Program-made: the position numbers and the translations under genes | Part shown: piece after piece, positions 11,268 through 64,000 of the stretch | Numbering within the stretch: the stretch's first letter is position 1 | Layout: each line of letters begins with the position of its first letter | The notes under the pieces: generated by a model | What the model saw: the letters and a program-made list of their open reading frames with translations, nothing else | What the model was told of the DNA's origin: nothing | Database searches by the model: none | Source of the DNA: Chitinophagales bacterium | GTDB lineage: Bacteria; Bacteroidota; Bacteroidia; Chitinophagales; Chitinophagaceae | Direction: 5' to 3' | Assembly (NCBI GenBank): GCA_017303415.1 | Contig: JAFLBJ010000002.1 | Span: 1 to 64,000, forward strand | Length of the DNA stretch: 64,000 nt

Positions 11268-11311
11268 AGCGGCGCAAAGTTAGGAGGAAAATATCGGTTA
11301 TCTTGCAGAAT

Positions 11312-11372
11312 AGAGATGACAGATGACAGATGACGGATGTTGGACCGTCATCCGTCATCTGTCATCCGTCCA
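11312..11372. repeat. Heptamer-tandem hairpin element, family F1 (GATGACA/GATGACG/GATGTTG units). Sits in the ubiE/engB divergent intergenic region
   Basis: 'gatgacagatgacagatgacggatgttggaccgtcatccgtcatctgtcatccgtcc': the left arm of 7-mers pairs with right-arm reverse complements, giving a 13 bp or longer stem. Confidence 0.8.
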
Positions 11373-11387
11373 CCATCATCACTCTAT

Positions 11388-17676: not shown

Positions 17677-17796
17677 ACGTGAGACGTCAATCGTGAGACG
17701 TCAATCGTGAGACGTCAATCGTGAGACGTGAATCGTGAGACGTGAGGCGTGAGTTGCTTCTCACGTCTCACGCCTCACGCCTCACGCGCCTCACGT
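17677..17796. repeat. Tandem-repeat hairpin element, family F2 (CGTGAGA/CGTGAGG units). Has three 14-mer direct repeats CGTGAGACGTCAAT plus a 20 bp hairpin
   Basis: 'cgtgagacgtcaat' occurs three times, followed by 'cgtgagacgtgaggcgtgag ttgcttc ctcacgtctcacgcctcacg'. Confidence 0.8.
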
Positions 17797-24994: not shown

Positions 24995-25057
24995 AGCGAA
25001 GGTGCAAGTTAAAGAAAAGGGAAGAGCTAAAAATGATTAGCTTTTAGTTATTAGCGA

Positions 25058-26242
25058 TTAGCTTTCGCCTTTTCTGAATTCAAGTATCGGATGCTTTTTG
25101 AACTCTTTTGTCCGGTCAAACAAAAACCGGTAGGTATGTAATTTTCGGCTTCGGTAGGTATCGCCGAAGTTCTCGGCCACATTGATCATTTTCGGGTTGA
25201 AGTCACCGATCCAGAGCATTTCATACCGGGTGTATTGTTTCAGGGGCTGGATGGTCAGTGCCGCTTCATTGATGATGTATGCATCCACGCCAGTGCCCTG
25301 AAATTCAGGGACAATGCCAAATATCAGTCCGCAAAAACTCCGGTTGGGTTTGGTGGCTTTATACCAGAGGAATTTGAGTTTGTGCCAGAGATCGAATTTA
25401 CCATTCAGGTATTTGAACCACTGGTTGAGATCGGGGATATTGAGAAAAATGGCGACCGGTTCATTATTATAATATACAAACCAGGCTACTTTTTCATCCA
25501 TCACCGGCTTCATTTTGCGGAACAGCGTCAATACCTGCTCTTTTTTCATTTGCTTCAAACCGCTATGTCCTGCCCAGGCCTTGTTATATACCGTTGTAAA
25601 ATCGGCTGCATATTTTTCCAGCTTGTTCTTGCGAATATGTTCCGCGCGATAGCCCGGGTCTTTGGATAAAAGGGCATGCCGGTCTTTGATCTTCTGGCTC
25701 ACCGGCAGATCGGGGTCCACCGCAAAACAGGTCTGGGTATAAAATACCTGAAACCCGTAGGATTCAAATAATTTATAATAATAGGGCGGGTTGTAATTGA
25801 GCCCGTACACCGGCGGATTAAACCCTTCTACCAATACCCCCCACCAGCGATCACGCTCTCCGAAATTGATCGGGCCATCCATGGCTTCCATGCCTTTTGA
25901 TTTGAGCCAGTCACGGGCAGCATCAAAAAGCGTGTTGGCGGCCGACTGGTCTTCGATGCAATCAAAGAAACCAATGCCCCCCACAGGCACATCGTCGCCT
26001 TTGTTCTTGTATTTTTTATTGGTAAAAGCGGCAATGCGGCCAATGAGCTTTCCGCGACTGTCTTTCAGTATCCAGCGCATGGCTTCCCCCTGGCGGAAAA
26101 ACTTGTTCTTTTCCGGATCGAATATTTCATTGATGTCCTTGTCCAGCGGACGTATATAATTCGGGTTTCCCTTATTAACAAGGGCATTAACTTTCAGGAA
26201 GTCCCTGCGGGTGGACCCGTCATTTACCTCGATCAATTGCAT
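25058..26242 (-). CDS. Conserved hypothetical protein, possibly with a GNAT-like acyltransferase fold
   Basis: 394 aa. No clear motifs. Recalls a conserved Bacteroidota family. Confidence 0.35.
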   Translation of the reverse strand: MQLIEVNDGSTRRDFLKVNALVNKGNPNYIRPLDKDINEIFDPEKNKFFRQGEAMRWILKDSRGKLIGRIAAFTNKKYKNKGDDVPVGGIGFFDCIEDQSAANTLFDAARDWLKSKGMEAMDGPINFGERDRWWGVLVEGFNPPVYGLNYNPPYYYKLFESYGFQVFYTQTCFAVDPDLPVSQKIKDRHALLSKDPGYRAEHIRKNKLEKYAADFTTVYNKAWAGHSGLKQMKKEQVLTLFRKMKPVMDEKVAWFVYYNNEPVAIFLNIPDLNQWFKYLNGKFDLWHKLKFLWYKATKPNRSFCGLIFGIVPEFQGTGVDAYIINEAALTIQPLKQYTRYEMLWIGDFNPKMINVAENFGDTYRSRKLHTYRFLFDRTKEFKKHPILEFRKGES

Positions 26243-34574: not shown

Positions 34575-34870
34575 GAGGCGTGAGAATCGTGAGACGTGAG
34601 ACGTGAGGCGTGAATGGTGAATAGTGAATGGTGAATAGTGAATAGTGAATAGTGAATAGTGAAAGATATAAAAAAGGGTCAATAGTGAAAACTATTGACC
34701 CTTTTGCTTATACATTATTTTCCTCCCCATTCCCCATTCACTATTCACTATTCACCATTCACGCCTCACGTCTCACGCCTCACGTCTCACGCCTCACGTC
34801 TCACGCCTCACGTCTCACGTCTCACACCTCACGCCTCACACCTCACGCCTCACATACAACAAGCTCCCAT
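34575..34870. repeat. Giant heptamer-tandem palindrome, family F2 (CGTGAGR and GTGAATR units), flanking a central terminator hairpin
   Basis: The left arm (34575-34667) and right arm (34728-34870) are reverse-complementary arrays of 7-mers. The centre (34676-34709) carries 'gggtcaatagtgaaaactattgaccc' followed by TTTTG. Confidence 0.85.
34676..34709 (+). terminator. Rho-independent terminator for the histidine kinase, located at the centre of the F2 palindrome
   Basis: A perfect 11 bp stem, 'gggtcaatagt gaaa actattgaccc', followed by TTTTGCTT. Confidence 0.75.
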
Positions 34871-36080: not shown

Positions 36081-36114
36081 ACAACTAACTGTTGTAGTGG
36101 GTACGAAGGTAGGA

Positions 36115-36300
36115 ATTTTGGATGATGGATGAGAGATGACAGATGACGGATGACAGATGACGGAAGATGGATGTTGGATGTTGGATGTTGGATGGGGAGG
36201 CTTGCTGTCCAACATCTGTCATCCGTCATCTGTCATCTGTCATCTGTCATCCAACATCCGTCATCCAACATCCAACATCCAACATCCTCCTCCCGCTCCA
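36115..36300. repeat. Heptamer-tandem hairpin element, family F1 (GATGACA/GATGACG/GATGTTG), in the queA/mraZ divergent region
   Basis: Left arm: about 11 units of GATGNNN. Loop: 'ggggaggcttgctgt'. Right arm: about 11 units of the reverse complements (CAACATC/CGTCATC/TGTCATC). Confidence 0.85.
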
Positions 36301-36506
36301 ATCCACACCTTTTCCACCCTAATCCACACCCTATTCACCATCAAAAGCGTCTCCCACTTTACCCCATCGCGTATAATCCTTACTGGTAGCGGGTTTCACC
36401 CCATTTACCCCCTGTGGAAAAAATAAAAAGATGAAAATTTGATTTATGAGTGGGAAAAAGTGTTATTTTGTGTCAATCTAATAAAAATTGATACAAATTA
36501 CTGATA

Positions 36507-47110: not shown

Positions 47111-48519
47111 ACAACGAGTCTCAACATACTGTCCTTATGAATACCCCCTTTCGGGGGAAACGGGTTTATTTCATTGGTATCGGTGGTATCGGGATGAGTG
47201 CATTGGCCCGTTACTTCCATACCCAGGGTGCGCTGGTGAGTGGATATGATAAAACCTCCACTCCTCTTACGAGAGAGTTGGAGGCATCGGGGATCGGGGT
47301 GCATTATAATGAAGATATTACCAAGGTCCCTCAAAATGCGGAATTGGTGGTGTACACACCCGCCATTCCCAAAGAGCATCAGGAGCTGGTTTATCTCCAG
47401 CAGCAAGGATATAACGTAGTAAAACGCAGCGATGTGCTGCAGATGATATCCAACAGTTCTTTTAATATCTGTATTGCCGGTACCCATGGCAAAACGACCA
47501 TTACCACCATGATCGCGCATCTCTTGCGCGATTCTGGCTATGGCTGCAACGCCTTTTTAGGCGGGATCTCTGTAAACTATGGCACCAATTTCTGGAGCCA
47601 TGAACGAAACGTATGTGTGATAGAAGCGGATGAGTATGATCGGAGTTTTTTGAAATTAAGTCCGGATATCGCGGTGATCACGGCGATGGATGCTGACCAC
47701 CTCGATATCTATGGCACAGCGGAGGAAATGGAAAAGGCTTTTATTGAGTTTTCCGGAAAGGTAAAACCATCTGGTAAACTGGTGAGCAAGTTCGGGTTGA
47801 AAAGAGGGAAAGACCTGTTGACACCCGACCGGACCACCTACAGCCTACAGAATGAAAGTGCCGATGTGTATGCCGACAATATCCGAATGAAAAGCGGCAG
47901 CTACACCTTCGATGTGGTGATGAAAGACAATAGGCTGAATGATGTGGTACTGCATATGGGCGGTATGCACAATGTGGAGAATATCACCGCGGCAATAGCG
48001 GTGGCCAGTTCTTTGGGGATCGAAAATGAGAAGATCAAATCGGCCGTGGAAAATTTCCGGGGCGTAAAACGACGCTTTGAGTATATCATCAAAACCGATA
48101 ACCAGGTTTTTATCGATGATTATGCGCATCACCCGGAAGAACTCAGGGCATTGATCACCGGGGCAAAATCTCTGTTTGCAGGTAAAACCTGTACGGTCAT
48201 TTTTCAACCGCACCTGTTTACCCGTACCAGGGACCATGCGGACGGGTTTGCCGAAGTGCTTGACCTGGCGGACCGGGTCGTTCTGCTCCCGATCTATCCT
48301 GCAAGGGAATTACCGATCGAGGGAGTGAACAGTGAAATGATCCTGGAAAGAATGAAAAACCCTAATAAGGAGCTCGTAAAGAAAGAGGATTTGATGAGCT
48401 GGGTCCAACAGTACGCCAAAACCTGGAACAAGGAATTGGGAAATGTGCTGGTAACCGCAGGAGCAGGGGATATTGATGGAGAACTTGTTGGAATAAAAGA
48501 AATATTAAATAAAAGCTAA
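47107..48519 (+). CDS. murC: UDP-N-acetylmuramate--L-alanine ligase
   Basis: YFIGIGGIGMSALA N-terminus. GTHGKTTIT P-loop. 470 aa. Confidence 0.9.
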   Translation: MNNESQHTVLMNTPFRGKRVYFIGIGGIGMSALARYFHTQGALVSGYDKTSTPLTRELEASGIGVHYNEDITKVPQNAELVVYTPAIPKEHQELVYLQQQGYNVVKRSDVLQMISNSSFNICIAGTHGKTTITTMIAHLLRDSGYGCNAFLGGISVNYGTNFWSHERNVCVIEADEYDRSFLKLSPDIAVITAMDADHLDIYGTAEEMEKAFIEFSGKVKPSGKLVSKFGLKRGKDLLTPDRTTYSLQNESADVYADNIRMKSGSYTFDVVMKDNRLNDVVLHMGGMHNVENITAAIAVASSLGIENEKIKSAVENFRGVKRRFEYIIKTDNQVFIDDYAHHPEELRALITGAKSLFAGKTCTVIFQPHLFTRTRDHADGFAEVLDLADRVVLLPIYPARELPIEGVNSEMILERMKNPNKELVKKEDLMSWVQQYAKTWNKELGNVLVTAGAGDIDGELVGIKEILNKS

Positions 48520-48537
48520 TAGCTATTGGCTATTAGC
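48515..48537. repeat. GCTAATAGC-loop-GCTATTAGC hairpin overlapping the murC stop codon. Same stem as the 12951-12985 terminator
   Basis: 'gctaatagctattggctattagc'. The stem is identical to the hairpin at 12956-12978, with a different loop. Confidence 0.6.
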
Positions 48538-48554
48538 TATTAGTCAAGAAAACC

Positions 48555-50724: not shown

Positions 50725-50806
50725 AGGTCCGAAGTCGAGAGTCCGAAGACAGAGGTCCGAAGAATTGACCTCGGACCCCGGACTTCCGACCTTGGACCCC
50801 GGACCT
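50725..50806. repeat. Octamer-tandem inverted repeat, family F3 (GTCCGAAG x3 followed by reverse-complement units), lying between ftsA and ftsZ
   Basis: 'ggtccgaagtcgagagtccgaagacagaggtccgaag aattg acctcggaccccggacttccgaccttggaccccggacc'. Confidence 0.7.
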
Positions 50807-62780: not shown

Positions 62781-62817
62781 TTGCGTGGCAAAAATACGGG
62801 ATTCCCGGGAGGTGGAT

Positions 62818-63120
62818 GTTGGATGTTGGATGACGGAGGACAGATGACGGATGACGGATGTTGGATGATGGATGTTGGATGGCGGAGGCTTGCTGTGCGA
62901 GACCTCTGGTCTCGCACGCATCTCCCGTCGCCTCTGGCGACAGAAATTGATTATTTTTCTAGATTTGCAATAATTTCTTATTCGAGTCGCCAGAGGCGAC
63001 AAGACAATCGTGCGAGACCAGAGGTCTCGCACAGCAAGCCTCCGCCATCCAACATCCAACATCCGTCATCCGTCATCTTTCCTCCGTCCTCCGTCATCCA
63101 AAATCCCACATCCAACCTCC
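62818..63120. repeat. Composite palindromic element with F1 heptamer arms (GGATGTT/GGATGAC). The arms enclose nested perfect palindromes and an AT-rich core
   Basis: The arms share 'gaggcttgctgt' with the element at 36115-36300. Inner units: 'tgcgagacctctggtctcgca' and 'gtcgcctctggcgac'. A 44 bp AT-rich core lies at 62943-62986. Their reverse complements follow. Confidence 0.85.
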
Positions 63121-63125
63121 CCACT

Positions 63126-64000
63126 TCACTTCCTCCGCTGCGCAAACATCCACTTCAAATATTCCGGCTCGGCAAAAGCATTATCCCAGCTATTGTGGTT
63201 TACACCGGGGTATTCGGAGTATTTGACGGTGGCCTTAAGCGCTTTGAGTCGCTCTACCATATCGCGGGAGAGTTTGACATCCACTACGGCATCTGCCGCG
63301 CCATGAAAGACCCAGAATGGGATCTTAGCCTGTTTTTTTGAATAACTATTGGGATCGCCACCACCACAAATCGGTAAGGCAGCGGCATAGAGATCGGGGT
63401 TGCGGTAAACGGATTCAAATGTACCCATGCCGCCCATGGAAAGACCAGTGATGTAGACGCGTTTTTCATCAACCGATCCTTCTTTGATCAGCGAGCGCAC
63501 CAGCGCATTGGCTGCAGCCTGGGGCCATACCGGAGCAGAGCCATAGGCAAAATCTAACTTAATGGGTTGTTTGCTGCGATCTACATTTACGGTGCCCCAA
63601 AAGGACTCCTCAGGGCATTGGGGGAATACAACGATCGCTGGGAAGTTCTTTCTGTTTTCTTCATTCAGAAAAAGCCGGCTGCCGTGTATCAATTGTTTCT
63701 CATTGTCTTTTCCCCGCTCACCTGCTCCATGCAGGAAAAGGATCATGGGGTATTTCTTCTTTGGATCATAATTTTCCGGATATAGAATGCGATAAGGAAG
63801 CACCTGCCCTTCGGCAAACTTGAATTCTTTTCGTTCATAGGCCACCAGAGCGGGATCAAACTCTTTTTTCTTCATATAACCCATCTGGTCCATCCATTCG
63901 CCTAAGCGCTCGATCCAATGGTCAGAAGGCATGTTTTGTTTCCGCATACCAAATCCATGTCCGCCTTTGGCATACATATGGATCTCGGCGGTGTTTCCGG
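63126..64000 (-). CDS. Alpha/beta-hydrolase (esterase/peptidase S9-like). Partial: the N-terminus runs off the window
   Basis: GLSMGG nucleophile elbow. HGAAD C-terminal His region. The ORF continues to the window edge without a stop. Confidence 0.65.
   Translation of the reverse strand, partial: GNTAEIHMYAKGGHGFGMRKQNMPSDHWIERLGEWMDQMGYMKKKEFDPALVAYERKEFKFAEGQVLPYRILYPENYDPKKKYPMILFLHGAGERGKDNEKQLIHGSRLFLNEENRKNFPAIVVFPQCPEESFWGTVNVDRSKQPIKLDFAYGSAPVWPQAAANALVRSLIKEGSVDEKRVYITGLSMGGMGTFESVYRNPDLYAAALPICGGGDPNSYSKKQAKIPFWVFHGAADAVVDVKLSRDMVERLKALKATVKYSEYPGVNHNSWDNAFAEPEYLKWMFAQRRK

Follow-up and report, generated by a model that had tools for sequence, protein, structure and literature searches.

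The spacer between queA and mraZ in a Chitinophagales bacterium (family Chitinophagaceae; GenBank assembly GCA_017303415.1, contig JAFLBJ010000002.1) carries a long hairpin of tandem heptamers at positions 36115-36290 of the 64,000-nt stretch analyzed here, which is called the window below. We suggest, with moderate confidence, that this element is a self-renewing palindromic heptamer microsatellite shaped by slippage and arm-to-arm exchange, rather than an operator, a classical MITE (a miniature transposable element with inverted repeats), or an assembly artifact. The repeat class to which it belongs is already recognized, though neither annotated nor understood, and the element is therefore not a new class.

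An earlier reading made from the letters of the DNA alone (the sequence-only reading) had described about 11 heptamers and about 11 reverse-complement heptamers around a loop at 36115-36300. This description was confirmed with Tandem Repeats Finder (TRF) and an in-phase cut into units, which placed the arms and loop within 36119-36287. The left (5′) arm, at 36119-36194, is G/purine rich and contains 11 in-phase units (TRF period 7, 10.9 copies) in the order GGATGAT, GGATGAG, AGATGAC three times, GGATGAC, GGAAGAT, GGATGTT three times, and GGATGGG. The right (3′) arm, at 36208-36287, is C/pyrimidine rich and contains 11 reverse-complement units (CCAACAT, CTGTCAT, CCGTCAT, and so on), found by TRF as complementary arrays. 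The 13-nt loop motif GGAGGCTTGCTGT lies on the plus strand at 36196-36208. The 78-nt arms are 78% complementary without gaps, with 15 nt in between. As single-stranded DNA, the region folds with −57.3 kcal/mol, compared with −29.2 ± 3.4 kcal/mol for dinucleotide shuffles (z = −8.3), and none of 200 shuffles was as good. The unit is composed of an invariant GATG core and three contiguous variable bases (unit positions 6, 7, and 1), and not of a heptamer with "degenerate third positions," as had been proposed. The two arms have a common vocabulary, but the order of the units is not mirrored (331 of 500 unit-order permutations scored equally well), which makes the hairpin register degenerate, able to pair in several registers.

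Hairpin energetics and the comparison of orthologous spacers had both been named as checks by the sequence-only reading, and the latter found variation in unit number as well as presence or absence of elements. The strains compared are represented by contigs that were recovered by exact-protein look-ups and are 89 to 100% identical to the window. Exact-protein look-ups for QueA and for the esterase ORF (open reading frame) returned no record, and the queA-side arms of other strains and further variants of the metG slot lie outside the series. At the queA/mraZ slot, L081 (94% identity) has the same vocabulary and loop with approximately 16 and 9 units versus 11 and 11 in the window, L085 and L086 (95%) have a different unit order, and L082 and L083 (93%) have a different vocabulary, GTGAATG/GTGAGAC. 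The marR slot of the window (17677-17795; CGTGAGA/CGTGAGG/CGTCAAT units in tandem orientation between an unknown 478-aa gene and marR; z = −9.1) was compared with that of L184, which is 98.9% identical genome-wide. The two spacers are equal in length, and all 26 differences fall inside the array, with none in the approximately 75 flanking bases. If the center is inverted once, 15 of the 26 mismatches remain; in our own reading of the alignment, the inverted loop matches at 10 of 11 positions. Other strains have GTGAATA units at this slot.

The remaining slots show both replacement and stability. At the divergent ubiE/engB spacer, a small hairpin of GATGAC/GATGTT units like those of the flagged copy (11306-11374; RNA fold z = −5.2) is present in the window and, with two substitutions, in L186. 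In L187 (91%; L187:6290-6500), GGATGTT arrays, with five units on the left and a single complementary unit on the right, enclose a complete nested GGTCCGA-type hairpin, which is the vocabulary of the ftsA-ftsZ element of the window; the L188 contig starts the same way and ends in this spacer. The convergent spacer between a histidine kinase gene (HK) and queA is 263 bp long in the window and 45 bp in L081, where it holds no more than a hairpin of four GCGTGAG units. At the metG slot, L192 is 99.9% identical over metG and 7.6 kb downstream and has no heptamer element (L192:1825-2055 compared with window 62781-63140). Upstream of metG it has a different gene (an esterase at 68% identity) with an ordinary terminator, and the break in identity exactly at the element-bearing spacer places a recombination junction at the repeat. 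The ftsA-ftsZ and murC-ftsQ copies are stable, with 0 to 2 single-nucleotide polymorphisms (SNPs) at 98.4 to 99.3% identity: the 48510 copy is identical in L180, and the 50725 copy has 1 or 2 SNPs in L180 and L181.

The comparison was extended beyond the strains by a scan of species-representative genomes with QueA, which assigned the window to the Chitinophagaceae and in which no conspecific representative was found. The closest species is L001, a metagenome-assembled genome (MAG) from an enhanced biological phosphorus removal plant (QueA 82% identity; nucleotide identity 77 to 83%). Its queA-mraZ spacer contains a hairpin of GGTGAAT/GGGTGAAT units, the GGGTGAAT units being octamers, located between the mraZ upstream region and the queA −7 box as in the window, and its queA 3′ spacer contains a hairpin of GTGAATG units. 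The more distant Chitinophagaceae L009, L019, L042, and L048 have paired arrays of 7- or 8-nt units. In L014 (QueA 55% amino acid identity), a 330-bp GTGA-NNN array with arms of approximately 46 versus 2 units is found at the queA 3′ end. Comparison at the sequence level thus shows arrays that change much faster than their flanks while the intergenic slot persists.

In our interpretation, the element consists of two tandem 7-nt arrays, each unit being GATG plus a variable trinucleotide, that are inverted around a short core. The comparison points to two processes: replication slippage, which adds, removes, or duplicates units within an arm, and an exchange of information or recombination between the two arms. 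New hairpin modules arise at the dyad, which gives nested vocabularies and nested palindromic cores. Sequence is also copied between loci, as indicated by the recurrence of a small vocabulary set at different loci and strains. The array would in this way renew itself and persist at its intergenic slot while its sequence turns over. It would have no sequence-specific function and would constitute a structure-prone spacer, which could extrude as a long cruciform in DNA or, where it is transcribed, fold into a hairpin in RNA. In one polarity only, such a spacer would be tolerated or would, at the most, help slightly to delimit transcription units. Selfish or neutral satellite dynamics is then the simplest interpretation.

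Each step has a counterpart in the comparison. Slippage-type change, i.e., gain, loss, and duplication of units within arms, is shown by the unit counts of L081 and by a 14-mer duplication in one arm of the 17677 element, the arms of which are unequal (11 versus 5 units). The slipped-strand expansion put forward by the sequence-only reading is clearly at work, as seen from these differences in unit number and order between strains. Arm-to-arm exchange is supported by the mirrored unit order in two other elements of the window (62813-63120 and 34575-34853) and by the loop that is apparently flipped relative to L184. Nesting at the dyad is supported by the 34575-34853 element as against the four-unit hairpin of L081, by the L187 composite as against the small hairpin of the window and L186, and by the core found inside both the 62813 element and L082. 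The swapped vocabularies at the queA/mraZ and marR slots, the absence of the metG element from a 99.9%-identical strain, and the unequal arms in L014 indicate that the arrays are neither sequence specific nor essential, and the hairpins at both queA spacers of L001 and the array at the queA 3′ end of L014 indicate that the slots persist.

It might be argued that the arrays are assembly artifacts of low-complexity reads, a possibility that the sequence-only reading had itself raised but that was not borne out and that we regard as scarcely credible. Short-read contigs do regularly break inside the arrays, and such contigs do not allow the order of units in the interior of the longest arrays to be verified. 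However, contigs of the same strain from other runs (L084, L189, and L193) are 100% identical to the window up to breaks inside the arrays, several independent assemblies span homologous hairpins (L081, L182 to L184, L187, L190, and L001), and the shorter copies at 11306, 48510, and 50725 are reproduced in L186, L180, and L180/L181, respectively. Sister strains carry homologous arrays, and their contigs too stop inside them: the contig ends of L082 to L086 and L185 to L191, from many sequencing runs, fall inside arrays at window equivalents of approximately 36255-36300 and 17687-17716.

The exchange of vocabularies also bears on the hypothesis that the arrays are bound by a protein that recognizes DNA or RNA, each heptamer taking up one protomer, or by a single-strand binder of the Csp/S1 type, which is MacGregor's proposal. 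In its favor, each unit has an invariant 4-nt core (GATG or GTGA) with three variable bases, binding of CspB to heptamer repeats has been discussed (MacGregor 2015, PMC4679880), and a preprint on Nostoc speculates on a binding partner. However, at least three unrelated vocabularies coexist in one genome and are interchangeable at a single slot, the relatives L001, L019, and L048 use 8-nt units, and the elements flank unrelated housekeeping genes. We therefore consider this hypothesis very improbable. The operator interpretation was rejected on the grounds of interchangeable vocabularies and the octamers of relatives, and the protein-binding half-site of the sequence-only reading is likewise not supported, since the same slots hold different units in sister strains and in the closest species and a 99.9%-identical strain does without the metG element.

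The unit vocabulary of the flagged hairpin had been said to recur at 11312-11372 and 62818-63120. Both recurrences were found, at 11306-11374 and 62813-63120, and the latter also shares the loop 13-mer. The 62813-63120 element is a large nested hairpin of GATGAC/GATGTT units between the esterase stop and the metG start, in tandem orientation (−153 kcal/mol, z = −25.6), and its 129-nt arms are 89% complementary. Its heptamer arms, at 62813-62883 and 63044-63120, have a mirrored unit order (6 of 500 permutations). Inward of them follow GGAGGCTTGCTGT at 62884-62896 and its inverted copy at 63031-63043, which lie on both sides and form part of the stem, then the palindromes GCGAGACCNNNGGTCTCGC at 62897-62915 and 63012-63030 and GTCGCCNNNGGCGAC at 62927-62941 and 62986-63000, and an AT-rich center of 44 nt; GCGAGACCNNNGGTCTCGC and GTCGCCNNNGGCGAC occur only inside this element. 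The nested element at 34575-34853, with outer arms of GTGAGAC/GTGAGGC and inner arms of GTGAATA/GTGAATG units (−93 kcal/mol, z = −17.4), likewise has a mirrored arm order (5 of 500 permutations). Among the mirrored-order elements (62813 and 34575), the rare unit GGAGGAC stands at the same place in both arms. The mirrored order means that the arms arose by inverted duplication or are homogenized against each other.

GGAGGCTTGCTGT has three exact occurrences in the window, one at 36196 and two, in inverted orientation, inside the 62813 element. The two elements are 26 kb apart, and in each of them this non-repeat 13-mer adjoins GGATGTTGGATGG at the same position. The outer part of a palindromic core is identical to the 13-mer; this core is written GCTTGCTGT-GCGAGACCTCTGGTCTCGCAC or GCTTGCTGT-GCGAGACC, and its window copy is located at 62884-62915. 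The window core sits within GATGTT-type arrays, and at the queA/mraZ slot of L082 the core GCTTGCTGT-GCGAGACCTCTGGTCTCGCAC sits within GTGAAT-type arrays. The same slot of L082 holds the core in full, and we therefore take the flagged loop's 13-mer to be what probably remains of a truncated core.

This sharing of a core brings up the hypothesis of a non-autonomous mobile family, either MITE-like or resembling the small dispersed repeats of cyanobacteria, in which the core (GCTTGCTGT-GCGAGACCTCTGGTCTCGCAC and its surroundings) and/or hairpin modules transpose into intergenic hairpins, preferably at dyads, and the arrays are terminal repeats or preferred hosts. The 13-mer at the same position in two elements, one palindromic core inside two types of arrays, modules nested exactly at dyads, and a limited vocabulary set that recurs at unrelated loci, in sister strains, and in a different species are all in agreement with it. 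However, inspection by eye of the flanks of 36115-36290, of 62813-63120, and of the module nested in 34575-34853 showed no target-site duplication, near-identical full-length copies were not found, with only units and the core in common, and no transposase or RAYT-like gene was seen among the annotated genes adjacent to the elements. Only three instances of the core were seen, at two slots. A scan of JGI metagenomes for the core junction GCTTGCTGTGCGAGACC returned 93 loci. As neither the full palindrome nor flanking arrays accompany any of them, all are considered chance 17-mer matches. Transposition of this kind is rather improbable in our judgment. Of the novel MITE-like family suggested in the sequence-only reading, what stands is the copying between loci that is indicated by the nested modules, the shared core, and the recurring vocabularies; the novelty of the class does not stand, and neither a target-site duplication, near-identical copies, nor a transposase was seen in its support.

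The position of the flagged hairpin relative to promoters is relevant to whether it acts at the level of RNA. The consensus of the Bacteroidetes −7 promoter box is TAnnTTTG, and the queA −7-like box TACCTTCG (36104-36111, minus strand) matches it at seven of eight positions. The distance of this box is 8 nt to the edge of the hairpin and 23 nt to the downstream queA ATG (36080); at the same place upstream of queA, the −7 box of L001, TACCTTTG, is exact. A sigma-70 promoter scan was uninformative for Bacteroidota. On the other side of the hairpin, at 36300-36360 on the plus strand, a series of CCAC-type boxes (ATCCACA, TTCCACC, ATCCACA, ATTCACC, and CTCCCAC) with a spacing of approximately 10 to 11 bp (TRF period 21) precedes mraZ. 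These boxes are conserved in all sister strains and recognizable in L001 and L003; they are outside the hairpin and mark its conserved right boundary. MraZ binds spaced direct repeats, and the boxes are a candidate MraZ operator. Abutting the queA box and lying upstream of the conserved mraZ control region, the flagged hairpin is probably untranscribed, part of neither the queA nor the mraZ mRNA, which agrees better with a role at the level of DNA, or with neutrality, than with a role at the level of RNA. A small-peptide interpretation of the ORFs that start in the left arm (36150-36426) is not favored; they run through array sequence whose vocabulary is replaced between strains. At the metG slot, an exact −7 box, TATTTTTG (62789-62796, minus strand), lies 16 nt from the hairpin edge and just 8 nt upstream of the metG ATG, which suggests that the metG leader is very short or absent.

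A further hypothesis is that the long stem-loop is selected as a structural element at gene boundaries, serving as a terminator or insulator, as a stabilizer of mRNA 3′ ends, or as a supercoil-buffering cruciform. Only structure and polarity would then be selected, and the sequence would be free to turn over. The slots are conserved despite the turnover (both queA spacers in L001, the queA 3′ end in L014), the vocabulary is common to both arms, and all elements fold, with z values from −3 to −26. The 45-bp convergent HK/queA spacer of L081 contains no structure other than the heptamer hairpin; a T-rich tract follows the hairpin of the marR slot, and hairpin edges abut the −7-like boxes of queA and metG. 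The preprint on Nostoc, in which deletion of heptamer repeats changed regulator effects at a promoter, also supports this hypothesis, as does the strong polarity of the arms described below (91:10 among the matches listed). However, a U-tract is missing in most copies, and the ftsA-ftsZ copy precedes an A-run inside an operon that needs read-through. Often the two arms differ greatly in length, and in the flagged copy the unit order is not mirrored. Presence or absence, or a variation of approximately 200 bp, is found between close strains without other change. The flagged copy lies between divergent promoters and is probably untranscribed. In addition, the 34575 element has its own canonical terminator at its center, which makes the heptamer arms redundant. 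Selection of this kind is thus unlikely, though we take it seriously.

An intrinsic terminator was considered for the hairpins and rejected, since a scan of the window found only the central stem-loop of the 34575 element. This structure, at 34672-34705 and exactly at the dyad, resembles a canonical bidirectional terminator with an A-tract, a 15-bp stem, and a T-tract; its stem, CAATAGTGAAAACTATTG, contains the array unit AATAGTGAA. The flagged hairpin is flanked by TCCTCCCGC on one side and AAAATTCC on the other.

The arms have a fixed polarity. In all seven heptamer hairpins of the window, and in every paired array inspected in strains and relatives, the G/purine-rich arm is 5′ and the C/pyrimidine-rich arm is 3′, and because the elements are palindromic the rule holds on both strands. 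It was tested independently in viral contigs, which were scanned for (GATGNNN)5 and (GTGANNN)5. Each pattern gave at least 120 matches, compared with fewer than one expected by chance for 20 specified bases (our own estimate), and the 235 loci listed (2.03 Mb) have a TRF spectrum dominated by period 7. Among these listed matches, 106 inverted heptamer-array pairs were found. Of the 101 that are informative on skew, 91 have a left arm with G>C and 10 one with G<C; the left arm is purine rich in 86 pairs versus 19. The same convergent arrangement is found in Xanthomonas, with 70 to 75 pairs in each of two genomes (Rehm 2015, PMC4692102).

Several causes of the polarity can be considered. The reverse polarity might expose a C-rich, G-poor Rho-loading site before pairing sequesters it, the polarity might reflect the distribution of start and stop codons on the two arm strands, or it might be a property of the process that generates the hairpins. 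Stops in all three frames of the inward-reading arm, which occur with GATGAC, GTGA-NNN, GGTTTAA, and AGCTAAT units, fail as a universal cause for GATGTTG and GGTCCGA. Transcription-induced strand skew was rejected because spacers with divergent promoters show the same polarity.

Returning to the self-renewing microsatellite, several points weigh against this interpretation. Hairpins at both queA spacers across approximately 20% nucleotide divergence, together with the strong polarity, could equally reflect a selected function. Slippage alone does not disperse vocabularies and the 13-mer/palindromic core from locus to locus, so that a further mechanism is needed; that there is some copying from one locus to another follows from the nested modules and the shared core. 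The unit counts in short-read MAG contigs (L081, L184, and L187) may contain assembly errors, so that some slippage differences may be artifactual; the vocabulary differences beside unique flanks are robust. Finally, the inference of a flipped loop is weak, because inverting part of a near-palindrome changes little.

Together, the seven hairpins account for 1.7% of the window (approximately 1.07 kb). Their spacers are divergent, convergent, or tandem, and they use at least three vocabularies (GATG-NNN, GTGA-NNN, and GTCCGAA). All fold better than shuffles, with z from −3.3 to −25.6. Four of them, with other vocabularies, were absent from the sequence-only reading: those at 17677-17795 and 34575-34853 described above, a short self-pairing AGCTAAT/AGCTATT array at 48510-48544 in the 35-bp tandem spacer murC-ftsQ (z = −3.3), and an element of GGTCCGA/GTCGAGA/GACAGAG units at 50725-50806 in the tandem ftsA-ftsZ spacer (z = −5.1). 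A short one-orientation ATTAGCT array, whose unit is related to the AGCTATT array of the murC-ftsQ spacer, is also present at 25036-25063, between two minus-strand genes.

The period of 7 nt stands out from the background. A self-match scan of the window found 11 segments (656 bp) at period 7 and none at periods 4 to 6 or 8 to 12. TRF found 14 arrays of period 7, 14, or 21 in the 64-kb window versus 16 in 664 kb of unrelated metagenomic DNA, an approximately ninefold density; the background consisted of the loci returned by the scan for GCTTGCTGTGCGAGACC, and multiples of three dominate its spectrum. One of these unrelated contigs, L153 (Ga0307505_10005947), has an (AACTAAC)n array right after an apparent ATG, approximately 100 nt upstream of its chance 17-mer match, which is another sign that heptamer arrays are widespread.

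Considering the known classes of repeats, several vocabularies of heptamers per genome, structured small elements inside arrays, and orthologous loci with different elements are features of the cyanobacterial STRR and small dispersed repeats (SDR). The STRR heptamers are reportedly due to Mazel in 1990, and mobile elements of 21 to 27 nt (the SDR) embedded in tandem heptamers of Nostoc are said to have been described by Elhai in 2008. They belong to a different phylum and have different sequences. Given that the core GCTTGCTGT-GCGAGACCTCTGGTCTCGCAC is present in two array contexts, they would be the nearest analogue of the core-in-array architecture, and we mention them as a lead.

Heptamers are the most abundant class of long simple sequence repeats (LSSRs) in bacteria, and they have been proposed to arise when the polymerase slips over a footprint of 7 nt (Mrazek 2007, as summarized in PMC4679880). 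The flagged arrays have the head-to-tail units in the 5- to 11-nt range and the length beyond chance of LSSRs, all seven elements are located in non-coding spacers between annotated genes, except for 18 nt of the right arm of the 34575 element that overlap the queA 3′ end, and the copy number is polymorphic between the window and L081, L184, and L085/L086, in short-read assemblies. They thus resemble LSSRs in their tandem 7-nt units, beyond-chance length, intergenic location, variable copy number, and slippage. However, LSSRs as summarized there (Mrazek, Guo and Shah 2007; PMC4679880) are direct arrays only, whereas the elements of the window have a paired inverted architecture, nesting, and the polarity rule.

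The GGGAATC heptamers of Xanthomonas are intergenic and occur as inverted convergent pairs able to form stem-loops or cruciforms (Rehm 2015, PMC4692102). Their arrays vary in length between related species with the slot and the single or paired type preserved, and they adjoin unrelated housekeeping genes with a function that "still remains to be elucidated" (PMC4692102). The window arrays are similar in being intergenic and convergent, with the same unit close together on opposite strands and the G-rich sequence on the plus and then the minus strand, and in keeping the slot while varying in length. Unlike the Xanthomonas repeats, which have one dominant G-tract unit (GGGNATC), G-quadruplexes, and a preference for four units (PMC4692102), the flagged arrays have units such as GGATGAC, AGATGAC, and GGATGTT, no G3 tracts, and 11 units per arm, and the elements as a whole have at least three vocabularies, palindromic cores within nested modules, and as many as approximately 18 units in an arm. 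The Xanthomonas repeats, from a different phylum, are also underrepresented between divergent genes (PMC4692102), where two of the seven window elements are located.

In Bacteroidetes, spacers of Gramella, Aequorivita, and Elizabethkingia contain mixed heptamer direct repeats of up to 43 copies (MacGregor 2015, PMC4679880), which are missing from the orthologous spacer of close relatives and inside which contigs end. These repeats differ from the present elements in being centered on TAACTGA, direct, and immediately upstream of start codons, with translational control proposed and no hairpin pairing described. In our literature search, we found neither an account of nested heptamer hairpins with several vocabularies in Chitinophagaceae nor a general statistical statement of the polarity rule.

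The elements share with MITEs and with repetitive extragenic palindromic (REP) sequences and REPINs that they are intergenic, inverted, hairpin forming, and dispersed. However, their inverted arms are tandem arrays of variable length rather than unique terminal repeats with defined termini, and within the 64 kb and the strain fragments the copies share units and the 13-mer/palindromic core without a conserved full-length consensus. REP, bacterial interspersed mosaic elements (BIME), and REPINs were rejected because there is no 20- to 40-nt palindrome consensus with a GTAG/CGTC head, the arms are multi-vocabulary heptamer arrays, and no REP-associated tyrosine transposase (RAYT) was seen. A clustered regularly interspaced short palindromic repeat (CRISPR) array was rejected because the units are of 7 nt and contiguous, without spacers, and no CRISPR direct repeat in Rfam was matched at the gathering threshold. 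That the elements are neither CRISPR nor REP/BIME was already the view of the sequence-only reading, and it holds. Rfam gave no match to the window at the gathering threshold; at E ≤ 1, only generic long-hairpin matches to plant microRNA precursors were found, all below the gathering scores. The sequence-only reading had considered that the elements might belong to a known repeat family, and this is the case insofar as the class is recognized without being annotated.

The arrays also affect gene ends. The last five codons of queA and its TGA stop (VRREV*) are encoded by the heptamer array at 34836-34853, in the right arm of the 34575 element. QueA ends with VRRET* in L081 and with ...EK* in L001, where the stop is the TGA of a GTGAATG unit; the arrays thus remodel the QueA C terminus. 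At the other gene end, mechanical ORF calling overextends queA by 45 codons (36081-36215) and metG by 94 codons (62781-63062) through the C-rich arms. The outward-reading arm strands have no stop codons, and this creates a risk of misannotated start codons next to the elements.

A bolder possibility, which we regard as a long shot, is that palindromic heptamer satellites are a widespread and distinct kind of self-propagating DNA of obligate polarity, with the purine-rich arm 5′. They would be produced by a specific mechanism (fold-back or hairpin-primed synthesis at stalled forks, or a dedicated enzyme), and their cores would home to dyads without a classical transposase. If this were true, the strain series with its persistent slots, swapped vocabularies, nested modules, and flipped loop would be a natural system for the mechanism, and this kind of DNA could account for the existence of heptamer arrays, which have been known since 1990.

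Intergenic heptamer arrays have been recorded for decades in cyanobacteria, Xanthomonas, Beggiatoaceae, and Bacteroidetes without an accepted origin or function. The present locus adds a case from Chitinophagaceae in which several unit vocabularies coexist, and it provides direct comparative evidence that the slot persists and that its sequence turns over at tens of times the rate of the flanks. The nesting at dyads and the shared palindromic core suggest copying between loci, and the 5′ position of the G-rich arm must be explained by any mechanism or function. For the annotation of Bacteroidota MAGs, it matters that these arrays break short-read assemblies, fragment the MAGs of this lineage, mislead the calling of start codons, and supply or alter the 3′ ends of genes. 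Should the hairpins prove neutral, the main value of the finding would lie in warning annotators and in serving as a case study of bacterial satellite dynamics. The locus and its strain series offer concrete, testable handles on the old puzzle of heptamer arrays.

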